This document shows positions 4,084-48,483 of a stretch of 64,000 bases of DNA, in pieces. The DNA lies in assembly GCA_016861245.1 (NCBI GenBank), contig BOKZ01000001.1, forward strand, positions 615,006 through 679,005, in the 5' to 3' direction. Within the stretch, counting starts at the first letter, position 1. Each line of letters starts with the position of its first letter. The position numbers were made by a program, and so were the translations under genes. This stretch comes from Patescibacteria group bacterium. GTDB lineage: Bacteria; Patescibacteriota; UBA1384; 2-12-FULL-50-11. The notes beneath the pieces are model-generated. The model did no database searches and was not told where the DNA came from. It saw only the letters and a list, made by a program, of their open reading frames with translations.

Positions 4084-4344
4084 ATGCAATTCTCAACCGC
4101 CGTTGAAGAGATTAACGAGCCGATTAAGGTTTTAGCTAGTTTCGACGCCGGTCGATTACGACTCCATACCTTTCTTTGGAACGATCGCATCTATAAGGTC
4201 GATCGATTTAATTTACTACATATCTCTAAAGACGGCGCCGGGCAAAGATATCATTATTGCGTTAGCTCAGCCGGTAACGACTACCAACTACGCTTTAACC
4301 CAATCGATCTCGAGTGGCGCCTTGAAAAAGTCTGTACTGGGTAA
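4084..4344 (+). CDS. hypothetical protein; gene carries the GTTCGG-N5-GTTCGG operator-like motif in its promoter (possible SOS-induced small protein)
   Basis: ORF 4048..4344. The likely start is MQFSTAVEE, preceded by GGTAGGAATATG. About 86 aa, no TM. The motif ATTCGGGAATTGTTCGG lies between a TTGCAT -35 and the -10. A bidirectional terminator, CCCAAGcaaataCTTGGG, follows at 4352..4369. Confidence 0.45.
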   Translation: MQFSTAVEEINEPIKVLASFDAGRLRLHTFLWNDRIYKVDRFNLLHISKDGAGQRYHYCVSSAGNDYQLRFNPIDLEWRLEKVCTG

Positions 4345-17378: not shown

Positions 17379-18590
17379 ATGGACAGGGAAAGCTTAGACA
17401 CCTTCGCAAATATTAAAGTCTGTGGCGTTGGCGGTTCCGGTGGGAACGCTATCGCCCGAATGATTGCCGCTCGAGTTCGAGGCGTCGAATTTATTGCTAT
17501 TAATACCGACGCGCAAGCGCTGTTAAATAACCCCGCGCCAGTAAAGGTTCAGGTCGGTAAAGAAACTACACGTGGATTAGGCGCTGGTGCCGATACAGAG
17601 GTTGGTCGCAAGAGTGCCGAAGAGAATAAAGACGAAATTTACGAAGTGCTTAAAGGCGCAGATATGGTTTTTGTTACGTTCGGCGCTGGTGGCGGTACCG
17701 GTACGGGTGCGGGACCGATGGTGGCGCAAATCGCTAAAGAACTCGGAGCGCTAACTGTTGGCGTTGTTACTAAACCGTTTAGTTTCGAAGGTTTACGCCG
17801 TAAAAAAATGGCTGAGATCGGTATAGAAGAACTCCGAGACAAAGTCGACACGTTAATTACAATTCCTAACGACCGCTTACTCCAGGTTATCGACAAGAAA
17901 ACGTCGCTACCAGATGCGTTCGGTATCGTCGACGATATCTTACGCCAAGGCGTTCAAGGAATTTCTGATTTAATTATTATTCCTGGAATTATTAACGTTG
18001 ACTTTGCTGACGTTCGAACAATTATGCACGACGCCGGCTCAGCGTTAATGGGAATCGGTCGCGCCAGCGGTGAGAACCGTGCGATCGAGGCCGCTCGTCA
18101 AGCGATCGATTCGCCGCTCCTAGAGCTCTCGATCGATGGCGCTAAAGGCATCCTTTACAACATCACCGGCGGACCAGATATGACGATGTACGAGGTTGAG
18201 GAAGCGTCTAAGGCTATTACTGAAGCAGCAGACCCAGAAGCAAATATCATCTTTGGCGCGATCGTCGACGACGCGATGTCCGGCGAGATTAAGATTACTG
18301 TCATCGCCACTGGGTTCGAAGCTGAACTAGCCAAGCCGCCAACAAAACGCCGCGCTAGCGAAGATATGATCGGATTTGGCGCCCGAGGCAATCAAGTTCA
18401 AAACTCGTCAACGATTCCGTTTTTCGGCTCTCAAAACACTCCGCAACAGCCGTTTACACTCGAACAAGAGCCGATGGATCTGACGCCACGCCGCGAGCGA
18501 ATCACACCACCGCCACCAGCACCGACTAAAGACGAAGAAAAAGACGACGAGCTCGACGTCCCAGCCTTCATCCGTAGAAAATTGAGGTAA
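17379..18590 (+). CDS. ftsZ: cell division GTPase FtsZ
   Basis: [10 protein letters not shown] and the tubulin signature [10 protein letters not shown]. Pro-rich C-terminal linker, then the conserved C-terminal peptide [13 protein letters not shown]. Confidence 0.95.
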
Positions 18591-18685
18591 CTCAATTTTC
18601 GAAGGAACGAGTAAACGCGAGTATTAGACAAAAACTTCGTTAAACCGAACCGATTCCAGGAAATTTCGTTACTACGATCAAGAAC

Positions 18686-18711
18686 CGAACAGTTGTTCGG
18701 CTTTTGTGCGG
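18686..18711 (+). promoter_or_regulatory. candidate operator in nrdJ leader: palindrome CGAACAGTTGTTCG overlapping GTTCGG-CTTTT-GTGCGG (site D)
   Basis: About 110 nt upstream of nrdJ and just 5' of a TTGACA...TGGTAGGGT promoter-like element. The second half-site is degenerate. Confidence 0.35.
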
Positions 18712-18819
18712 TTTGCTGCTTGACACAATTAATGACCGATGTGGTAGGGTGAGCAAGATACGGAGGGGTAAGATTTTCCCTGGAATCACTACATATAAGG
18801 TTAATTTGGAGGATGAGGG

Positions 18820-21800
18820 ATGGCACAAAAGCGTAAGAGTGATGACGTGAGTTTGAGCGAAATCGCTCTTAAACCGGTGGAGATTTCTGTCGATCTGCCA
18901 AGCGATAAAAAAGCAAAACCGGGGCTGAAAGTGACTCGTCGGTTCACAAAAGAGGGTGAAGACGTTTTCTCGACAGTTACATGGGAGAAACGGAGTTCTG
19001 TTATCTCCGACGAGAAAGGTAATATCATCTCCCAAATTAATGATATCGATGTACCGAGCAGCTGGACTCAGCTAGCTACTGATATTATCGCTTATAAATA
19101 TTTTCGCAAAGCAGGGTTACCAACGAAAGAGGGGAGAGAGACATCGGTTAAACAACCGATTTTTCGTATCGCTCATACGATCGCGGATTTCGGCGAGAAA
19201 TTCGGCTATTTTGCCAGCGCCAGCGACCGGCAGGCCTACGAGGAAGAGCTTATTTACCTACTCCTAACACAACGAGCGGCGTTCAACTCACCAGTATGGT
19301 TTAACTGTGGCTTATATCATCAGTACGGAATACAGGGTCAAGGCGGATCTTTCTATTGGGATTTTAAAGAAGATAAGGTTTTAGAAACAAAAACTGCTTA
19401 TCGTAACCCGCAATGTTCGGCTTGTTTTATTTTATCGGTTACCGACACGTTGCCGGGAATTTTTGAGTTAGTAAAAACTGAGTCGCATATCTTTAAGTAC
19501 GGCTCGGGAGCTGGCGCCAATTTCTCCACGCTTAGAAGTCGTTTTGAACGATTGAGCGGCGGCGGTTACTCAAGCGGGATGATGAGTTTTCTACGTGTTT
19601 TTGACCGTGCGGCAGGCGCAACTAAATCCGGCGGTACTACCAGACGGGCAGCAAAAATGGTGGTCGTTAACATCGATCACCCTGAAATCGAGGACTTTAT
19701 TGAGTGGAAGGTAAAAGAAGAGAGAAAAGTTCAGATACTAATCGACGCTGGCTACGAGTCGGATTTTAACGGCGAGGCGTACAGCACTGTTTCTGGACAA
19801 AATTCCAATAATTCAGTTCGGATTACCGACGAATTTATGCACGCCTACGAAAATGACGGCGAATGGCAAACCCGAAGTGTTACTACTAAAGAACCTATAA
19901 AAACATTTAAGGCCCGGGAGTTAATGGATCGAATCGCACAGGCAGCCTGGAAGTGCGCGGATCCAGGCGTTCAGTTTGATACGACTATTAACGAATGGCA
20001 CACCTGCCCAAATACCGATCGAATCAACGCCTCAAACCCGTGCTCGGAATATATGTTTCTCGACGACTCGGCTTGTAACCTAGCGTCGATTAACTTGGGT
20101 AAGTTCATTAACGAGAACGGCGAGTTTGATATTGCTGGTTATCGTCACGCTTGCCGCATAATGTTTATCGGCCAAGAAATAGAAGTAGATTTATCTTCGT
20201 ACCCAACCGCAACGATCGCTAAAAACAGTCACGACTATCGGCCGCTCGGCCTCGGCTACGCCAATCTTGGTGCGCTATTGATGCTTAAAGGCGTACCTTA
20301 CGACTCAGAAGAGGGCTTTGCCATCGGTGGAGCGTTAACCGCTATTATGTGCGGCCACGCCTATAAAACGTCAGCGGAAATCGCTGCCGTTAAGGGTCCG
20401 TTTAACGGTTTCGTACGCAACCGCGCGCCGATGTTAAATGTTATGAAGAAACACCGAGCCGCTGCTTATAAGATCAACGAGAAACACTGCCCAACCGATC
20501 TATTTGAAGCCGCCAAACAAGACTGGGACGAAGCGGTAGCGCTCGGCGAACAGTTCGGTTACCGAAACTCACAAGCAACGGTTATCGCTCCGACTGGGAC
20601 GATCGGACTACTGATGGATTGTGATACTACCGGTGTTGAGCCGGATTTTGCGTTAGTTAAATTCAAAAAGCTCGCTGGTGGCGGCTCGATGAAAATTGTT
20701 AATAACGCTGTCCAACAAGCGCTAAAAAATCTTGGGTACACGGAAACACAGCGTAAAGAAATTATCGACTACGCCGTTGGTACTGGTAGCCTCGACGGCA
20801 GTACACCGATTAATAGAGCCTCGTTAGTGAAAAAGGGACTACTTGATAGTGAGATCCAAAAGATTGAGGATTCATTAAAAAGCGCGTTCGACATTACCTA
20901 CGCATTCAACCGTTTTTCGCTTGGTGAAGACGCGTTTAATCGTCTCGGAATTACTCCTGAGATCGAGCAAAAATCGGGCTTTTCCTTCCTTAAACATATT
21001 GGCTTTACCGACTCCGAGATTACCCAGACAAACGAGGTTATTTGCGGTACGCAGATGTTGGAGGGGGCACCTCACCTAAAGGTTGAGCACTACCCAGTTT
21101 TCGACTGTGCTAACAAGTGTGGATCAAAGGGGACTCGCTATATTAAAGCGATGGCTCACGTTCATATGATGGCCGCAGTTCAGCCGTTTATCTCAGGAGC
21201 AATCTCGAAGACCATCAACATGCCGCACGAGGCGACAGTAGAAGACGTAAAAGACGTTTATATCCAATCCTGGAAATTAGGCATTAAAGCGCTAGCCTTG
21301 TACCGCGACGGATCGAAGTTGTCTCAACCACTCAACACGAAAAAAGAGGAGGAGAAAGAGGAAAGGTCGCAAGAAACTGTTGTTGTTTATAAGCCACGAC
21401 GCAGACGTCTTAGCGACGAACGCCAGGCGATCACTCATAAATTTAGTATTGCTGGACACGAAGGCTATATCACTGTCGGTCTCTACGAAGACGGTCAACC
21501 CGGCGAGATCTTTATCACTATGGCAAAACAGGGGAGTGTGATTAGCGGTTTGATGGACGCTTTTGCTACTTCGATCTCGATGGCGCTGCAATACGGCGTA
21601 CCGTTATCTGTTATTATCAGAAAATTTGCCAATAGTCGTTTCGAGCCGTACGGGTTCACTTCCAATCCGCAGATTCGCATCGCCAAATCGATCGTAGACT
21701 ATATCGCGCGCTACCTTGGAATTAAGTTCCTCTCCACCGCCGAACAACAAGAAATCGGTATTAAATCCGATAACCCTGCCGCTTCGAGCCAGGCGCCGCT

Positions 21801-22020
21801 TGAGCTAGAAACAAACGGACCGGGCGTCGCTGTACCGATTAAGCTCGGCGAAAGCGAGAAAGACGTAGAAGAAGATCAGGACGATTCTGACATTACCTCA
21901 CCGCCACCAGCAGCCTCCTCAGACGCTCCGCCGTGTCCAACCTGTGGATCGATGACAACTAAAACCGGTACCTGTTACACTTGTTTGTCGTGCGGTTCGA
22001 CTACCGGTGGCTGTAGCTAG
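18820..22020 (+). CDS. nrdJ: ribonucleoside-diphosphate/triphosphate reductase, class II (adenosylcobalamin-dependent, NrdJ long monomeric form) with C-terminal Cys4 zinc ribbon
   Basis: 1066 aa. Active-site region NPCSEYMFLDDSACNLASINL, typical of class II/Ia RNR catalytic domains. The size, the absence of an adjacent nrdF, and the C-terminal CPTCGSMTTKTGTCYTCLSCG fit NrdJ. GGAGG RBS 7 nt upstream. Confidence 0.85.
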   Translation: MAQKRKSDDVSLSEIALKPVEISVDLPSDKKAKPGLKVTRRFTKEGEDVFSTVTWEKRSSVISDEKGNIISQINDIDVPSSWTQLATDIIAYKYFRKAGLPTKEGRETSVKQPIFRIAHTIADFGEKFGYFASASDRQAYEEELIYLLLTQRAAFNSPVWFNCGLYHQYGIQGQGGSFYWDFKEDKVLETKTAYRNPQCSACFILSVTDTLPGIFELVKTESHIFKYGSGAGANFSTLRSRFERLSGGGYSSGMMSFLRVFDRAAGATKSGGTTRRAAKMVVVNIDHPEIEDFIEWKVKEERKVQILIDAGYESDFNGEAYSTVSGQNSNNSVRITDEFMHAYENDGEWQTRSVTTKEPIKTFKARELMDRIAQAAWKCADPGVQFDTTINEWHTCPNTDRINASNPCSEYMFLDDSACNLASINLGKFINENGEFDIAGYRHACRIMFIGQEIEVDLSSYPTATIAKNSHDYRPLGLGYANLGALLMLKGVPYDSEEGFAIGGALTAIMCGHAYKTSAEIAAVKGPFNGFVRNRAPMLNVMKKHRAAAYKINEKHCPTDLFEAAKQDWDEAVALGEQFGYRNSQATVIAPTGTIGLLMDCDTTGVEPDFALVKFKKLAGGGSMKIVNNAVQQALKNLGYTETQRKEIIDYAVGTGSLDGSTPINRASLVKKGLLDSEIQKIEDSLKSAFDITYAFNRFSLGEDAFNRLGITPEIEQKSGFSFLKHIGFTDSEITQTNEVICGTQMLEGAPHLKVEHYPVFDCANKCGSKGTRYIKAMAHVHMMAAVQPFISGAISKTINMPHEATVEDVKDVYIQSWKLGIKALALYRDGSKLSQPLNTKKEEEKEERSQETVVVYKPRRRRLSDERQAITHKFSIAGHEGYITVGLYEDGQPGEIFITMAKQGSVISGLMDAFATSISMALQYGVPLSVIIRKFANSRFEPYGFTSNPQIRIAKSIVDYIARYLGIKFLSTAEQQEIGIKSDNPAASSQAPLELETNGPGVAVPIKLGESEKDVEEDQDDSDITSPPPAASSDAPPCPTCGSMTTKTGTCYTCLSCGSTTGGCS

Positions 22021-22038
22021 CGAGGCGGAGTAATACCG

Positions 22039-22578
22039 ATTTACACCAAAAAAGGGGATAACGGTGAGACCGGGTTACCCGGAGGACGACGGCTTAGCAA
22101 AGCCGATCGTCTCTTCGAGGTCCTAGGCGGCCTTGATCAAACCAGCGCCACACTCGGGTTGGCGGTGGCGCAAATAAAAAACAAACGGTTACGCGACGAA
22201 TTACAAAATATTCAGCGCCACTTTTTGGCGATCGGGGCGACGCTTGCCTCAGAAAAACCGTTAGAGATGCCAATAATTGCCGAGTTGCCGGCTCTAACTA
22301 AGCACCTGGAACACCAAATCGATATCTGGGATAAACAGTTGCCCGAATTGAAAAATTTTATCTTAGCCGGTGGCTCCGTTGCAGGCGCTACCCTGCACCA
22401 AGCCAGAACGTTTATCCGACAAGCTGAGAGGAATTATTATTGCCTAGACAGCAATCAAAAAATCCCTGAAATCGGCATATACCTCAACCGACTTTCTGAT
22501 TACCTTTTTCAAGCTGCGAGATATTACAATTTCCTCCAAAAGCAGCCTGAGGCGATTTGGAAGTACACAAAAGATTAG
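22039..22578 (+). CDS. ATP:cob(I)alamin adenosyltransferase, PduO-type (N-terminal start unresolved; no canonical start codon)
   Basis: Translation immediately after the nrdJ TAG gives ...IYTKKGDNGETGLPGGRRLSKADRLFEVLGGLDQTSATLGLAVAQ, the hallmark PduO-type N-terminus (IYTxxGDxGxT). The six-frame track only starts at a TTG at 22159. Candidate starts are ATT at 22039 and ATA at 22033. Confidence 0.75.
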   Translation: MYTKKGDNGETGLPGGRRLSKADRLFEVLGGLDQTSATLGLAVAQIKNKRLRDELQNIQRHFLAIGATLASEKPLEMPIIAELPALTKHLEHQIDIWDKQLPELKNFILAGGSVAGATLHQARTFIRQAERNYYCLDSNQKIPEIGIYLNRLSDYLFQAARYYNFLQKQPEAIWKYTKD

Positions 22579-22638
22579 GTGTAATTGAGTTGACTTTCTG
22601 GAGAAAAATCGGTATAGTGGTGGCGTTAAGTTAATAGG

Positions 22639-22692
22639 GACGGTAGTGCTGGAAACGGTCGATCCCCTCCCGTCGTTTCCAGTACTACCGTC
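22639..22692 (+). other. long near-perfect hairpin (about 21-bp stem) in the pduO to 22774 intergenic region
   Basis: GACGGTAGTGCTGGAAACGG...CCGTCGTTTCCAGTACTACCGTC. A TATAGT -10-like element lies about 25 nt upstream. A canonical terminator follows at 22708..22745. Confidence 0.45.
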
Positions 22693-22707
22693 TTTAGAAA
22701 ATCAACA

Positions 22708-22745
22708 AGAAGCCCTCGGTTAATCCCGAGGGCTTCTTTATTATT
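22708..22745 (+). terminator. intrinsic terminator (GAAGCCCTCGG-ttaatc-CCGAGGGCTTC + T-run)
   Basis: Perfect 11-bp stem followed by TTTATTATT. Confidence 0.7.
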
Positions 22746-22773
22746 ACGACGACTATGATATCCTGATAGACAC

Positions 22774-23328
22774 ATGAGAAGCGAGTCAACCTCACCAACT
22801 GCCATCGTTTTAACCTGTATTGCTGCGCTCGGTAGACTAATCCCGCATCCCGCCAATATGACGCCGATTGGGGCTAGTAGCTTATTTGGTGGTGCGATGG
22901 TTGCCAGACCATGGAATTACTTATTACCGCTTCTAACAATGTTTGTAACTGATATTTTTCTCGGCTTCCACGCTACTATGCCGTACGTCTACGCCAGTAT
23001 TGCAATCGGGGTATTTCTGGCTGAATCGTTTCTAAAGAAGTCTGCGAACTTAAAACTTGTAGCCATCATCTCAGTTGTAAACGCTGTATTATTCTTCATC
23101 GTTACCAATTTTGGCGTCTGGGCAAGCTCAACGCTGTATCCAAAAACTACGGCTGGATTATACCAATGTTACGTTATGGGCTTACCGTTTCTGCGGAATA
23201 TGGTAATCGGGGATGTGTTGTTCGGCGTCGGATTCTTCGCCATGTATCAGTACGCTCACAAAACTGCAGTAAAAACCGCGTTTGACAATTGGGCGATCCG
23301 ATCGTTACAGTTGGCGAGGATTAAATAG
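22774..23328 (+). CDS. small polytopic membrane protein (5-6 TM); candidate vitamin transporter S-component (BtuM/ECF-S-like) by context
   Basis: 184 aa, mostly hydrophobic (LIPHPANMTPIGASSLFGG..., VAIISVVNAVLFFIVTNFGVW...). The start is uncertain: 22774 or 22858. Located between the adenosyltransferase and thioredoxin genes. Confidence 0.4.
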   Translation: MRSESTSPTAIVLTCIAALGRLIPHPANMTPIGASSLFGGAMVARPWNYLLPLLTMFVTDIFLGFHATMPYVYASIAIGVFLAESFLKKSANLKLVAIISVVNAVLFFIVTNFGVWASSTLYPKTTAGLYQCYVMGLPFLRNMVIGDVLFGVGFFAMYQYAHKTAVKTAFDNWAIRSLQLARIK

Positions 23329-23336
23329 GAGGAATA

Positions 23337-23614
23337 TGAGCAACGTAACACTAATAGATTTCTGGGCGGCTTGGTGCGGACCGTGTAAAGTGATGCACCC
23401 GATCGTAGAAGAGCTCGAAAAAGAATATAGCGGTAAACTGACCGTTACAAAATACGACGTTGATGATCCTGCAAATCAGTCTGTAGTTCAGAAATACGAG
23501 GTTATGGCGATGCCAACGTACTTTATTGAAAAAGACGGAGAAGTGGTACAGCAGTTCGTCGGCGCTCAGAGCAAAAAGACTCTCGCCGACGCTATCGATA
23601 AAGTACTAAGTTAA
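23337..23614 (+). CDS. trxA: thioredoxin
   Basis: Active site WAAWCGPCK. AGGAGG RBS 6 nt upstream of MSNVTLIDF. About 92 aa. Confidence 0.9.
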
Positions 23615-26539
23615 TTGTTGGAACAGTTGAACGATTTCTGACTCTTCGTCATCGATAGGAAAATCTTTTCTTGAGAGTATCTCGTTGTAGGAATCTACAA
23701 CATCTCGCTTCATTTGTTTAATTTCGTCAGTAGTAATCTGAAAAACTTCGCAACGAAACGTCTTTTTATCATCGATAAATTGGATGGCGAATTCTTTTGC
23801 TTGATACGGAAAGAGTGGGTCGAGTTCGCACAGCATAGCGTAGAATACTAATTGCGCTTTCATTTTACCGTCAGAGTCCTGGGTTTTCCCTTCGATATAA
23901 TTTGCAGTTCTTGATTGTGAACCGGTTTTATAGTCGATAATTCGAACGTTTTTCGTTGTTGGGCTAATCGGTTCGATGCAGTCAATTTTACCGTTTAGCC
24001 AAATTTTTTCTAACATCACCTGGTGAGGTCTAAAACTGTACTCAGTCCCAAGCGGCCTAATCCATGTGGGGGCGTGAGAGTCGTAAAACTCACTTAATAC
24101 ATCGATGCCCTGCTCAAGAAAGGTGTCTCGGTTAGTGTACGGAATGCTCCTCTGTATCTCTTCTCTAAAGTAGAGGAGTAGTTTTTGCTTAGTCGGTAAT
24201 TTCTTGAACGCCTTGTAGTCTCGGTTAAAGCGCTCAAGGGCGGCGTGGACCGAGTCACCGTAAGCCAAGCTTGGCGTAAACGGCGTCGGTAACTTATATA
24301 CGTGTTTCAGTAAGTAAGTTCGTGGGCATGTTTTATAATCCCAGTATGCCGTGAACGAGAACGGGACTTGAGCCACACGCTCCCGGATAAAAGAGAGTTC
24401 GGCGGAGTTGATTGAGGAGTCGGGAATAGGGAAGAGTTGTTGAGTAATGAACCGGCTAAGTTGTGTTTCTTTAATCGTTAGCGGTTCCGATCGAGCAGTC
24501 GTTTCTATCTCTTTAACCAACTGGCTCGGAAGCTCATCACGACCATCAGCGCCGATTTGCGAATACGAAATAGTTAACTGCTTTCTTGCACGAGTTATCG
24601 CCACATAGAACAGTCGTCTCATATCTTCTAACTCATCATTATCAGTACCGGCCGCACCGATCAGCTCACTAGGAATTTTTACCGTAGAACGATTCGGCTT
24701 AACGCGCCAAACGCGATCGGTGGCATGAGGAATAAATACAACGTCAAACTCGAGTCCCTTTGCTTGATGGACAGTATTAATAAACACGCCCGCGGTTTCA
24801 GCGCGGGATCGATTAACTGAAAATGACAGACCGTACGTCCGATGTAGCTCAAGGTATTCGAGCCAATCAGAGAGTTGCGCGGTTTGATTTCGCTTGGCGT
24901 ACTCGCGACAATTTTCAATTAGCGTCGCCACTAACTCAAGGCTCGATAAGTGCTGCGGTCGCTTCCGAATAGCGTCGAGAACACCGCCACGATACAACAC
25001 CTCTTCGACAAGTTCCGGCACCGATAGCAGTTCTTGCCGGTGGTGCCATTCAACGAGACGCTCAGCCACATTTTTTATACCCTGGTTCGCGGTTTCAAGG
25101 GCAGCAGCGATTATTTTCTTCTTTGTTTCGCGAGCAGTATTAATTACCTCAATTACACTCAGCGCCTCTTTTGTACCGACAAGCGCTCGAAGCGCGCTGG
25201 CAACTGCCACATCGTTATTCGGATCGTTGATTGCTCGTAGTAGTTGGACTAACACTTGAACTTCTCTTTCTTTTAGCAAATCCGTACTTTGTAGGCCGGC
25301 CACCACCAAACCGGCTTTCTCAGCTGAATCACGAAAATCATTCGCTTCGCTATTAGTTCGAAAAAGTACCGCCATCTCCTCCCAAGCGATACCATCCTTG
25401 TGCAAACGGTTCAGACGATCGATGAGCGCAAAATGTTCAGCAATTTGGGTTGTAGCTACTAAAATATCTGGCTGTAACCCTGGGCTTACAGTTGCTTGTA
25501 GGGAGTCAGCGACGGCTGGGATTTGTTTTGAGAGTTGCTGGCTGTTGTGAGAAATTAATTCGTGAGCTGTTTCTAGAATTTCTGGAGAGCTTCGATAGTT
25601 TTGAGTTAGTGAAATCACTGTAAGATCGGGATACCTTCGGTAAAAATGCAGCATATTTGTCACTGAAGCGCCCTGGAAGCGGTAGATGGCTTGTTTATCG
25701 TCACCGACGACAAATAAATTTGGCGTCTCGAAAAAATCAGCGAGTAACTCGACTAATTTATTCTGAGCGTTGTTAGTATCTTGATACTCATCAACTAAAA
25801 TATATTGATACCGTTCCTGAAAATATGCTTTAACTTCGGCGTTTTTTTGTAGCGCCGAGAGTGCCAGTAGAATCATATCTTCGTAGTCGTAGACAGAGCG
25901 ACGTTCTAACTCTTTTTGGTACTCCGTTAAAATCTCTGCGAACTCGAGCAGGATCTGGCTCGTTCGTTTGTTCCGTTCAGCTTCAGTCTTATTTTTTACT
26001 TTTTTCCGACCGAGCGCTTGGACGTACGTAACTATCTGATTAACCTCGATCGCTTCCTGCTTAGCCGTCCTAATCGCGCTCGCGATATCGCGAACGTGCG
26101 CCGTTTCGCTTCGAAGTGGACGCAGTAATTTTACTGATGGATTTTTTTTAATGATCTTCTCAAGTAGTAGTAGGCGCTCAAGATTATCTAGTTGAGTGAG
26201 TGTACGAGCGGTTGAAAAAATATGGGGGAAGGTGCCGATAACTTCGTTAGCGAAACCGTGGAACGTTGCGATCGTTACTTGATATGAAACAGCACCGATA
26301 TATTTGGTAAGACGCTCTCTTAGAGCCACAACACCGGCTTCAGTGAAAGTAAGCGCTAAAATATTTTTTGCCGACAGCTGAGTGCTCTGTAAGATAGCTG
26401 CAATTCTAAGCGCGACAACTTGTGTTTTACCCGTACCCGGTCCCGCTACTACCATCACCGGGCCCTCAATCGCTTCGACAGCTTGTCGCTGAGCAGTGTT
26501 AAGTTTGCGCAACTCTTTTCTAAATCGGTTTTCGCTCAT
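23606..26539 (-). CDS. UvrD/PcrA-family SF1 helicase fused to a C-terminal PD-(D/E)xK (RecB/AddB-like) nuclease domain
   Basis: 977 aa. Walker A VMVVAGPGTGKTQV. A UvrD-like helicase core fills the N-terminal two thirds. The C-terminal region carries IDYKTG...FYAMLCE, a RecB-family nuclease signature. Confidence 0.75.
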   Translation of the reverse strand: MSENRFRKELRKLNTAQRQAVEAIEGPVMVVAGPGTGKTQVVALRIAAILQSTQLSAKNILALTFTEAGVVALRERLTKYIGAVSYQVTIATFHGFANEVIGTFPHIFSTARTLTQLDNLERLLLLEKIIKKNPSVKLLRPLRSETAHVRDIASAIRTAKQEAIEVNQIVTYVQALGRKKVKNKTEAERNKRTSQILLEFAEILTEYQKELERRSVYDYEDMILLALSALQKNAEVKAYFQERYQYILVDEYQDTNNAQNKLVELLADFFETPNLFVVGDDKQAIYRFQGASVTNMLHFYRRYPDLTVISLTQNYRSSPEILETAHELISHNSQQLSKQIPAVADSLQATVSPGLQPDILVATTQIAEHFALIDRLNRLHKDGIAWEEMAVLFRTNSEANDFRDSAEKAGLVVAGLQSTDLLKEREVQVLVQLLRAINDPNNDVAVASALRALVGTKEALSVIEVINTARETKKKIIAAALETANQGIKNVAERLVEWHHRQELLSVPELVEEVLYRGGVLDAIRKRPQHLSSLELVATLIENCREYAKRNQTAQLSDWLEYLELHRTYGLSFSVNRSRAETAGVFINTVHQAKGLEFDVVFIPHATDRVWRVKPNRSTVKIPSELIGAAGTDNDELEDMRRLFYVAITRARKQLTISYSQIGADGRDELPSQLVKEIETTARSEPLTIKETQLSRFITQQLFPIPDSSINSAELSFIRERVAQVPFSFTAYWDYKTCPRTYLLKHVYKLPTPFTPSLAYGDSVHAALERFNRDYKAFKKLPTKQKLLLYFREEIQRSIPYTNRDTFLEQGIDVLSEFYDSHAPTWIRPLGTEYSFRPHQVMLEKIWLNGKIDCIEPISPTTKNVRIIDYKTGSQSRTANYIEGKTQDSDGKMKAQLVFYAMLCELDPLFPYQAKEFAIQFIDDKKTFRCEVFQITTDEIKQMKRDVVDSYNEILSRKDFPIDDEESEIVQLFQQLT

Positions 26540-48126: not shown

Positions 48127-48264
48127 AGGCAAATCTTGGTGGAGGCGCCGGGAATTGAACCCGGTTCCAAAAAGAGAAACACGATGTCGTTGGTTTTTGT
48201 TTAGGCATTTTCCCAACTTGAGCTACCACGCTCAGACTTCGCTCTTACCCTCTCTGTCGAACCC
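48127..48264 (-). ncRNA. ssrA: tmRNA (ssrA)-like gene comprising only the tRNA-like domain and P2 helix (138 nt; no tag reading frame found)
   Basis: The minus-strand 5' end GGGGGCGUAAGGGUUCGACAGAGAGGG matches the tmRNA 5' consensus (compare B. subtilis GGGGACGUUACGGAUUCGACAGGGAUGG). The 3' end AUCGUGUUUCUCUUUUUGGAACCGGGUUCAAUUCCCGGCGCCUCCACCA matches the tmRNA T-arm/acceptor/CCA (compare AUCGAUGUUUCUGGACGUGGGUUCGACUCCCACCGUCUCCACCA). The 5' GGGGGCG pairs with the 3' CGCCUCC. The body is far too short for pseudoknots or a tag ORF. Confidence 0.55.
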
Positions 48265-48483
48265 TTACGCCCCCACTGCTTGGGTACCAAAAACTGCCAC
48301 TGCTTTCCAATTCGCCTCATCAGCATTAATCGGAACAATCGAGACAAGGTTCCAGCCCCGTTCTGACATTTCATCGAAGGAAATTGGTTCTTCTGCAAAC
48401 TGCAAGTCTCTGACTCGCAGACAGACGTTTTTCTCGCTGTCCACTGTTGCAACTATTGGTAGGGTTCTGTATTGCATATTCAC
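48265..48483 (-). CDS. hypothetical small protein (72 aa) abutting the tmRNA-like 5' end
   Basis: MNMQYRTLPIVATVDSEKNVCLRVRDLQFAEEPISFDEMSERGWNLVSIVPINADEANWKAVAVFGTQAVGA. Balanced composition. Not SmpB. Confidence 0.35.
   Translation of the reverse strand: MNMQYRTLPIVATVDSEKNVCLRVRDLQFAEEPISFDEMSERGWNLVSIVPINADEANWKAVAVFGTQAVGA

Follow-up and report, generated by a model that had tools for sequence, protein, structure and literature searches.

A cobalamin-centred gene module in a Patescibacteria genome with a predicted near-cognate start codon of the adenosyltransferase gene

The nrdJ-pduO junction

The analysis covered a 64,000 nt stretch of the genome of a Patescibacteria group bacterium (GenBank assembly GCA_016861245.1, contig BOKZ01000001.1), which is called the window below. 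Four consecutive genes on its plus strand encode a class II (adenosylcobalamin-dependent) ribonucleotide reductase (nrdJ), a PduO-type ATP:cob(I)alamin adenosyltransferase (pduO), a 184 aa membrane protein, and a thioredoxin. A first-pass annotation, made from the sequence alone, had already proposed these four identities, and the profile matches bore them out; the window harbors a compact cobalamin module of a Berkelbacteria-like Patescibacteria genome. The reductase gene nrdJ (18820–22020, plus strand) encodes 1,066 aa and ends with a TAG stop codon at 22018–22020. Its product matched NF005122 with 1,349 bits (cut-off 859), which is above the equivalog threshold, and TIGR02504 with 583.6 bits (cut-off 399.95). 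The class II N-terminal domain PF08471 was detected with 80 bits, and PF02867 and PF12637 were detected as well. The nrdJ ortholog in a related locus (L044) is 92% identical to that of the window.

The adenosyltransferase gene pduO (22033–22578, plus strand) comprises 181 codons, from a proposed start codon ATA at 22033 to a TAG stop codon at 22576–22578. The open frame from 22021 to 22575 matched PF01923 with 155 bits (cut-off 24) over profile positions 1–170 of 171, and TIGR00636 (PduO_Nterm) with 136.1 bits (cut-off 108.45) over positions 1–171 of 171. Position 1 of the PF01923 profile falls on the isoleucine of an ATT at 22039. The ATP-binding segment (I/V)YT(K/R)xGDxGxT is encoded as IYTKKGDNGETGL at 22039–22077, and purifying selection has conserved it among the relatives. 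Judged by the curated profiles, the pduO product is a PduO-type adenosyltransferase, with adenosylation as its predicted activity.

Directly after the nrdJ stop codon, the sequence continues in the same frame with CGA GGC GGA GTA ATA CCG ATT TAC ACC AAA AAA GGG GAT. No ATG, GTG, or TTG is present in the pduO frame of the window sequence between the nrdJ TAG and a TTG at 22159, which is the first canonical start codon in this frame and lies 40 codons past the ATT at 22039. That pduO follows a single TAG in the nrdJ frame and lacks a canonical start codon, as the first-pass annotation had stated, was therefore confirmed. In nearly every long open reading frame (ORF) of the window, a canonical start codon, usually ATG, follows the preceding in-frame stop codon by no more than about 15 codons. 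Other ORFs that seemed to lack a canonical start codon (a DinB-like ORF, a pilin ORF, a T2SSF ORF, and three others) were also considered, and the positions of their Pfam domains indicated normal starts. The missing canonical start codon is thus specific to pduO within the window. A recoding of TAG was ruled out, because many ordinary genes of the window end with TAG; therefore, the genetic code is standard.

A purine-rich, Shine-Dalgarno-like tract, GAGGCGGAG, can be read from the sequence at 22022–22030 (plus strand). Within this tract, the ATA at 22033 is preceded by GAGG at a distance of 7 nt and by GGAG at a distance of 2 nt, and the same GGAG is 8 nt upstream of the ATT at 22039. The ATA itself is located 12 nt past the nrdJ stop codon. 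Only 14 of the 46 confidently placed genes of the window have a Shine-Dalgarno-like motif within 3–11 nt of the start. Apparently, this genome relies little on Shine-Dalgarno sequences, and therefore the double motif in front of pduO stands out.

The junction was compared with those of relatives at increasing distance. A scan of one genome per species yielded the metagenome-assembled genome "bacterium isolate DTUPAT3" (L001), the PduO of which is 94% identical at the amino acid level; its junction is the same as in the window, except that the third codon is ATA, not ATT. A protein search resulted in three informative sequences, a truncated call of 137 aa with 96% identity (P0002), a protein of 186 aa with 78% identity (P0001), and a protein of 152 aa with 72% identity (P0003). 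A scan of metagenome contigs for close pduO relatives found nothing above 42% identity and was of no use for the junction. The 137 aa protein was found on four Logan contigs from different sequencing runs (L046–L049), and all four read TAG CGAGGCGGAGTA ATA CCG ATT. Two loci with 78% identity (L044 and L045), which are fully syntenic (ftsA-ftsZ-nrdJ-pduO-DUF6580-trx-helicase), have ATA CCG at the position of the window ATA. Altogether, ATA is found at the pduO start position in eight assemblies (the window, L001, and L044–L049). The locus with 72% identity (L103) has ATT CCA at this position.

The more distant orthologs are conventional. Those with 57–66% identity (P0004–P0014) have lengths of about 180 aa and begin with MPIYTKKGD, MTIYTKKGD, or MSIYTKKGD. 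In the syntenic loci L050 and L051, an ATG is exactly aligned with the window ATA at 22033 (ATA CCG ATT TAC in the window versus ATG CCA ATT TAT in L051), and L104–L107 also have ATG at the pduO start position. Thus, ATG is present only in the distant orthologs, and ATA or ATT in the closer ones, which points to an evolutionary substitution of ATG by ATA rather than to an error. ATA CCG is invariant within the ATA lineages, at the exact position of the ortholog ATG. The third codon, by comparison, is ATT, ATA, or ATC across the relatives; such free variation among the isoleucine codons is what an ordinary internal codon would be expected to show. The simplest history would be that an ancestral ATG was changed to ATA in the ancestor of the clade and was then kept, with ATT arising in one branch.

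The codons at the beginning of the reading frame are under selection. When the window is compared with L044, every gene included is saturated at its synonymous sites (synonymous divergence, dS, of about 1 to >3), and the ratio of non-synonymous to synonymous divergence (dN/dS) of pduO is 0.06. The 41 codons from the ATA to the first canonical start codon contain 15 synonymous and three non-synonymous differences in this comparison (dN/dS 0.07), and 20 synonymous and eight non-synonymous codon differences in the comparison with L103. Neither frameshifts nor internal stop codons were found in pduO of the relatives. Because these 41 codons are under purifying selection despite the saturation of synonymous sites, the comparisons indicate that the N-terminus upstream of the TTG at 22159 is translated.

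Initiation of pduO translation

The AUA at 22033 is probably the codon that is actually used for initiation. Initiation at this AUA would be weak and would make use of the Shine-Dalgarno-like tract, and ribosomes terminating at the nrdJ TAG 12 nt upstream would probably assist, either via translational coupling or via re-initiation. Expression of the adenosyltransferase would then be low and coupled to that of nrdJ, and the outcome would be adenosyltransferase in a small, fixed proportion to the reductase. This would suit an enzyme whose sole task is to load recycled cofactor. The arrangement is similar in all three lineages without ATG: a Shine-Dalgarno-like tract (GAGGCGGAG in the window, AGGA in L044, and AAGGCGGAAGA in L103) lies 5–8 nt upstream of the ATA or ATT, and the nrdJ stop codon is located 11–12 nt upstream. 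In a Saccharibacteria metagenome-assembled genome (L009, 5995–6003), the nrdJ TAG directly abuts the in-frame ATG of pduO (…TGC TAG ATG AGT…), and thus tight coupling of nrdJ and pduO recurs in the phylum.

In E. coli, the near-cognate codons AUA, AUC, AUU, and CUG initiate at about 1–2% of the level of AUG, and natural AUU start codons have been described for infC and pcnB (bioRxiv 10.1101/063800). Like these two E. coli genes, pduO has a conserved near-cognate AUH codon where relatives have AUG, together with an upstream Shine-Dalgarno motif, and a low or regulated output is expected. A near-cognate AUH at the orthologous start position, its conservation in relatives, and selection on the coding sequence were all observed for pduO. 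The differences are that another gene is concerned, that the codon is mostly AUA, not AUU, and that it is located 11–12 nt past an upstream stop codon, which makes coupling to nrdJ likely. From other PduO-type enzymes of PF01923/TIGR00636, pduO of the window differs in the start codon alone. In Patescibacteria, pduO is an accessory of nrdJ, and not part of a diol or ethanolamine pathway.

Several points speak against the AUA at 22033 as the start codon. The initiation yield of 1–2% is a value for E. coli that may not hold for Patescibacteria. The conservation of ATA rests on three lineages. L044 contains an in-frame TTG seven codons upstream of the ATA that overlaps the nrdJ end and is a possible alternative start codon; indeed, the gene caller had picked a TTG overlapping the nrdJ end in L044 and L045, and the solution may therefore differ between lineages. 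In addition, the AUU at 22039 is a competing candidate, which would be served by the GGAG at 22027–22030, with the AUA at 22033 remaining untranslated. GGAG-N8-ATT is well spaced, the Pfam profile begins at this isoleucine, and the relatives have ATT, ATA, or ATC here, all of which are near-cognate. However, drift among the three isoleucine codons is what an internal codon would exhibit, the ATA CCG upstream of it is invariant in the ATA lineages and sits on the ortholog ATG, and the AGGA of L044 is 5 nt away from the ATA but 11 nt from the ATC. Initiation at the AUU is thus unlikely, albeit the most credible of the alternatives to the AUA. The first-pass annotation had named AUU (22039) or AUA as possible starts; its idea of near-cognate initiation is favored, whereas of the two codons it is the AUA that is aligned with the ortholog ATG, not the AUU.

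The remaining explanations do without a near-cognate start codon. Readthrough of the nrdJ TAG would produce the transferase as part of an NrdJ-adenosyltransferase fusion. The two genes share one frame with a single TAG between them in the window, L001, and L046–L049, and in E. coli, termination is comparatively weak at a TAG with C as the next nucleotide. However, the common frame amounts to a 1-in-3 coincidence and is not conserved: deletion of 1 nt in the spacer moves pduO out of the nrdJ frame in L044 and L045, L103 has a tandem TAG TAA, and in distant orthologs, 126–760 nt or even an entire gene intervene between nrdJ and pduO. Moreover, TAG is a normal stop codon in the window, and none of the 120 PduO homologs listed is fused to a reductase. 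Readthrough, which had also been suggested at first, is disfavored as a conserved route to the adenosyltransferase and is very improbable, although the fusion might be a minor product in the window organism. We assign a similarly low likelihood to a crippled gene, that is, an early pseudogene or a gene from which only a truncated 139 aa product without the ATP-binding N-terminus is made, starting at the TTG at 22159. Gene callers do report such truncated products in the clade (P0002 with 137 aa and P0003 with 152 aa), but the region encoding residues 1–42 (IPIYTKKGDNGETGLPGGR…) is subject to strong purifying selection, with ratios of synonymous to non-synonymous differences of 15:3 and 20:8, the relatives are free of frameshifts and internal stop codons, and the dN/dS of the whole gene is low (0.06). 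Finally, an error of sequencing or assembly could mask a true ATG; a single G-to-A difference would suffice, and the distant orthologs carry ATG. Yet the same junction is present in the window, in the metagenome-assembled genome from GenBank, and in six Logan assemblies that stem from different runs, and ATA or ATT occupies the same position in the relatives with 78% and 72% identity. The agreement of independent assemblies and the occurrence of ATA or ATT in diverged relatives refute this initial suspicion, and the chance of an error is negligible.

The DUF6580 gene and the upstream structured RNA

The third gene (22774–23328, plus strand) encodes the membrane protein of 184 aa, which belongs to the DUF6580 family (PF20221, 156.3 bits with a cut-off of 27, 1e-45). 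The strongest argument for a cobalamin-related role is that its homologs stay with pduO and nrdJ in four gene orders. The order nrdJ-pduO-DUF6580-trx is found in the window and in L044, L050, L051, and L104–L107, nrdR-nrdJ(with intein)-pduO-DUF6580 in L108, nrdR-nrdJ-[AdoCbl-II riboswitch]-DUF4430-DUF6580-pduO in L109, and nrdR-nrdJ-pduO-DUF4430-DUF6580 in L110 (AdoCbl, adenosylcobalamin). The riboswitch in L109, a Patescibacteria contig of 461 kb, is an AdoCbl-II aptamer (RF01689) at 4135–4214, between nrdJ and DUF4430-DUF6580-pduO and directly upstream of the latter, that was detected with 58.1 bits (gathering threshold 36.5, E = 6e-12). In transcobalamins, DUF4430 forms the C-terminal domain (PMC4350170). 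Within the set of PduO loci that were fetched, pduO has DUF6580 as a neighbor in the Patescibacteria lineage only. The four recurring gene orders and the riboswitch in L109 strengthen the view of a cobalamin-centred cluster with which the analysis had started. Precomputed Pfam matches indicate that the intein in the nrdJ homolog of L108 (990–4466, on a Roizmanbacteria-like contig) has a LAGLIDADG endonuclease domain.

An AlphaFold2 model of the DUF6580 protein, built on 53 homologs, had a pLDDT of 91.6 and a pTM of 0.85. The best Foldseek match of this model in the PDB was BtuM with cyanocobalamin (8c7p, probability 0.98), and further top matches were FolT, PanT, CbiM, and ThiT; the top ranks had probabilities of 0.9–1.0 and TM-scores of 0.45–0.66. 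A search of the PDB sequences with the DUF6580 profile gave one meaningful match (E = 0.012), a 182 aa chain of 6FNP named "Membrane protein", which is taken to be the S-component CbrT because of its size and name; the alignment spans helices 1–3. Sub-threshold Pfam matches to ECF_trnsprt and ECF-ribofla_trS (PF12822 and PF07155) occurred in 4 and 8, respectively, of the 53 family members. Together with these matches, the model indicates a fold like that of the S-components of energy-coupling factor (ECF) transporters. The residues R21, H25, N28, D60, H66, N112, W116, Y122, and D147 are invariant in the alignment of the 53 sequences.

Two characterized cobalamin transporters are the closest points of comparison. 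With BtuM of Thiobacillus denitrificans (PMC6072759), the DUF6580 protein shares the small size of about 180 aa, the S-component fold, and the cobalamin-linked context, and no ECF module was seen in the 64 kb around its gene. In contrast to BtuM, which has an invariant cobalt-ligating cysteine (Cys80 of BtuM_Td; PMC6072759), it belongs to another sequence family without a counterpart of this residue, and the TM-scores are only 0.45. Neither sequence nor profile searches of the PDB sequences detected a BtuM chain at E ≤ 10. Membership in the BtuM family was ruled out; the protein is a DUF6580 member without an invariant cysteine and gave no BtuM match in these searches. The likeness to ECF-CbrT of Lactobacillus delbrueckii (PMC5997447, PDB 6FNP) consists of the profile match mentioned above, but the similarity is marginal, and no EcfA or EcfT genes were seen in the window and the related loci. 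Taken together, the fold and the gene neighborhood suggest that the DUF6580 protein is probably a cobalamin uptake protein that acts as BtuM or CbrT do, but is a member of neither family. The initial guess of a BtuM/ECF-S-like importer is supported by the fold and by the weak profile matches, although the family of the protein is DUF6580 and not BtuM.

Other results weigh against a role in cobalamin uptake. The Foldseek E-values are weak (0.08–1.4), and the alignment of the 53 DUF6580 sequences has no invariant or nearly invariant cysteine column. The ABC signature LSGGQ is found in no long ORF of the 64 kb window, nor was it found in the genes that had been called in the related loci; without an ABC ATPase signature in the window, a solitary, BtuM-like action is possible. 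Furthermore, searches for a cobalamin riboswitch were negative over the whole window at the gathering threshold, and even at E ≤ 10 in the regions 22540–22830 and 18560–18860.

The region between pduO and the DUF6580 gene contains three elements in a row. A promoter-like site, TTGACT-17 nt-TATAGT (22590–22618, plus strand), matches the consensus at 10 of 12 positions, and its TTGAC and −10 element are kept in the orthologous loci. It is followed by a structured RNA (22630–22698, plus strand) that forms a long hairpin with the invariant apical loop ..UCGAUCCCCUCCCGU.. and has a minimum free energy of −65.8 kcal/mol (z = −10). The third element is a hairpin resembling an intrinsic terminator (22707–22738; 13 bp, including 8 G-C pairs), which together with its T-rich tail extends over 22707–22746 and reads as a terminator on both strands; the orthologous loci contain equivalent G + C-rich hairpins with T runs behind them. 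Because of these three elements, the four genes are not a single uninterrupted operon. The DUF6580 and thioredoxin genes would form a second unit, with its own promoter-like site, the conserved structured RNA, and the terminator-like hairpin at its start.

The structured RNA is conserved over nine divergent orthologous Patescibacteria loci, in which the apical loop CCCCUCCC(G/A)U is invariant and the stem covaries. Compensatory changes were found for 15 of the 26 pairs of the 69 nt hairpin. In the alignment, 87% of the cells are paired, versus 40–50% in slid controls, and none of 500 shuffles reached the observed values. A covariance model matched each locus once, in every case upstream of DUF6580, and gave no further match in 643 kb; the scores were 86.8 bits for the plus strand and 34.4 bits for the minus strand. 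No Rfam family corresponds to the hairpin at 22630–22698, and the Rfam matches near the element, such as His_leader, which was driven by the terminator, were at chance level. In the close relatives of the window, a cobalamin riboswitch was likewise not detected at the gathering threshold. An alignment of the regions upstream of nrdJ contained no conserved structured element; all that it revealed was the terminator of ftsZ and a promoter-like site.

Thus, where the uptake operon of L109 has the AdoCbl-II aptamer, the window has an unrelated long hairpin with the CCCCUCCC loop at the equivalent place. Because of this equivalent position, a role in the control of cobalamin uptake is the obvious hypothesis. 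A leader that switches upon ligand binding was considered, but opening of the 5′ strand of the hairpin gave no conserved anti-terminator, and in each of the nine orthologs the hairpin folds independently of the terminator; hence, there is no support for a riboswitch of the classical P1/anti-terminator type. The element could act in cis, as a leader, or could be a small RNA of its own, with a C-rich loop. A more far-reaching proposal would be that 22590–22746 is an undescribed regulatory RNA, acting as a cobalamin-responsive cis-regulator or as a small RNA that controls B12 uptake through its C-rich loop, that replaces the AdoCbl-II riboswitch of the sister lineage, and that the DUF6580 proteins make up a new and widespread cobalamin importer family. 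This proposal is tentative, and we regard it as rather doubtful at present.

Directly past the terminator, about 15 nt upstream of the DUF6580 ATG, the region 22753–22773 begins with a −10-like TATGAT (22753–22758), and TG-N-TAnnnT-like sequences are found at the same place in orthologs of the DUF6580 locus. The DUF6580 start has no Shine-Dalgarno sequence. The gene may thus be expressed from its own near-leaderless transcript, with a short leader, via the TATGAT.

The last gene of the module (23336–23614, plus strand) encodes a thioredoxin of 92 aa with the active site WCGPC (TIGR01068, 97.9 bits with a cut-off of 96.8; PF00085), which would serve as the reductant for the NrdJ reductase. The longest ORF begins with a TTG at 23282 and overlaps the DUF6580 gene. 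Most likely, the start codon is the ATG at 23336 and not this TTG: the ATG is preceded by AGGAGG, the Pfam match starts just past it, and the resulting length of 92 aa agrees with orthologs that were called at 92–96 aa. A thioredoxin of 92 aa is short and lacks the usual N-terminal strand and helix. On the minus strand, a gene for a helicase of the UvrD/PcrA type that carries a PD-(D/E)XK nuclease domain at its C-terminus (23606–26539) converges on the thioredoxin gene and overlaps its last 9 nt; this neighbor is kept in all loci of the window type. Elsewhere in the window, a very short tmRNA is encoded at 48137–48319 (minus strand). It was detected with 75 bits by Rfam, with 42 nt in place of 274 central model positions, while ARAGORN predicted 183 nt and the tag peptide AKSERGSSSWENA and disagreed with Rfam on the 5′ end.

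Implications of the cobalamin module

The observations are best summarized as a cobalamin module that consists of an nrdJ-pduO unit, in which pduO would be initiated at a near-cognate AUA, and a DUF6580-thioredoxin unit, in which the DUF6580 protein would function in corrinoid uptake. We estimate the probability of this reading, which is based on comparative sequence analysis and structural modeling, to be about 70%.

To our knowledge, natural start codons that are neither AUG nor GUG nor UUG have been documented for very few bacterial genes. By all sequence comparisons, the pduO start appears to be a genuine, retained near-cognate AUA or AUU, and thus adds a case to a phenomenon that is known, but has seldom been documented. 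The codon has been retained over a long period of evolution in one defined clade, for which the sister lineages with ATG represent built-in controls. There is also a practical consequence: standard gene callers cut pduO to 137–152 aa or invent an overlapping TTG start, and therefore metabolic reconstructions may wrongly score the adenosyltransferase of these Patescibacteria as damaged.

DUF6580 is a family of thousands of proteins (6,498 clusters at 50% identity with E ≤ 0.001), and a literature search found no papers on it; corrinoid uptake represents a testable function for this family. The structured RNA at the putative transporter gene offers a concrete candidate for a regulatory RNA of a new kind. 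As far as we know, Patescibacteria do not synthesize cobalamin and yet rely on a B12-dependent ribonucleotide reductase, and the gene cluster described here suggests how they may acquire and activate this cofactor.

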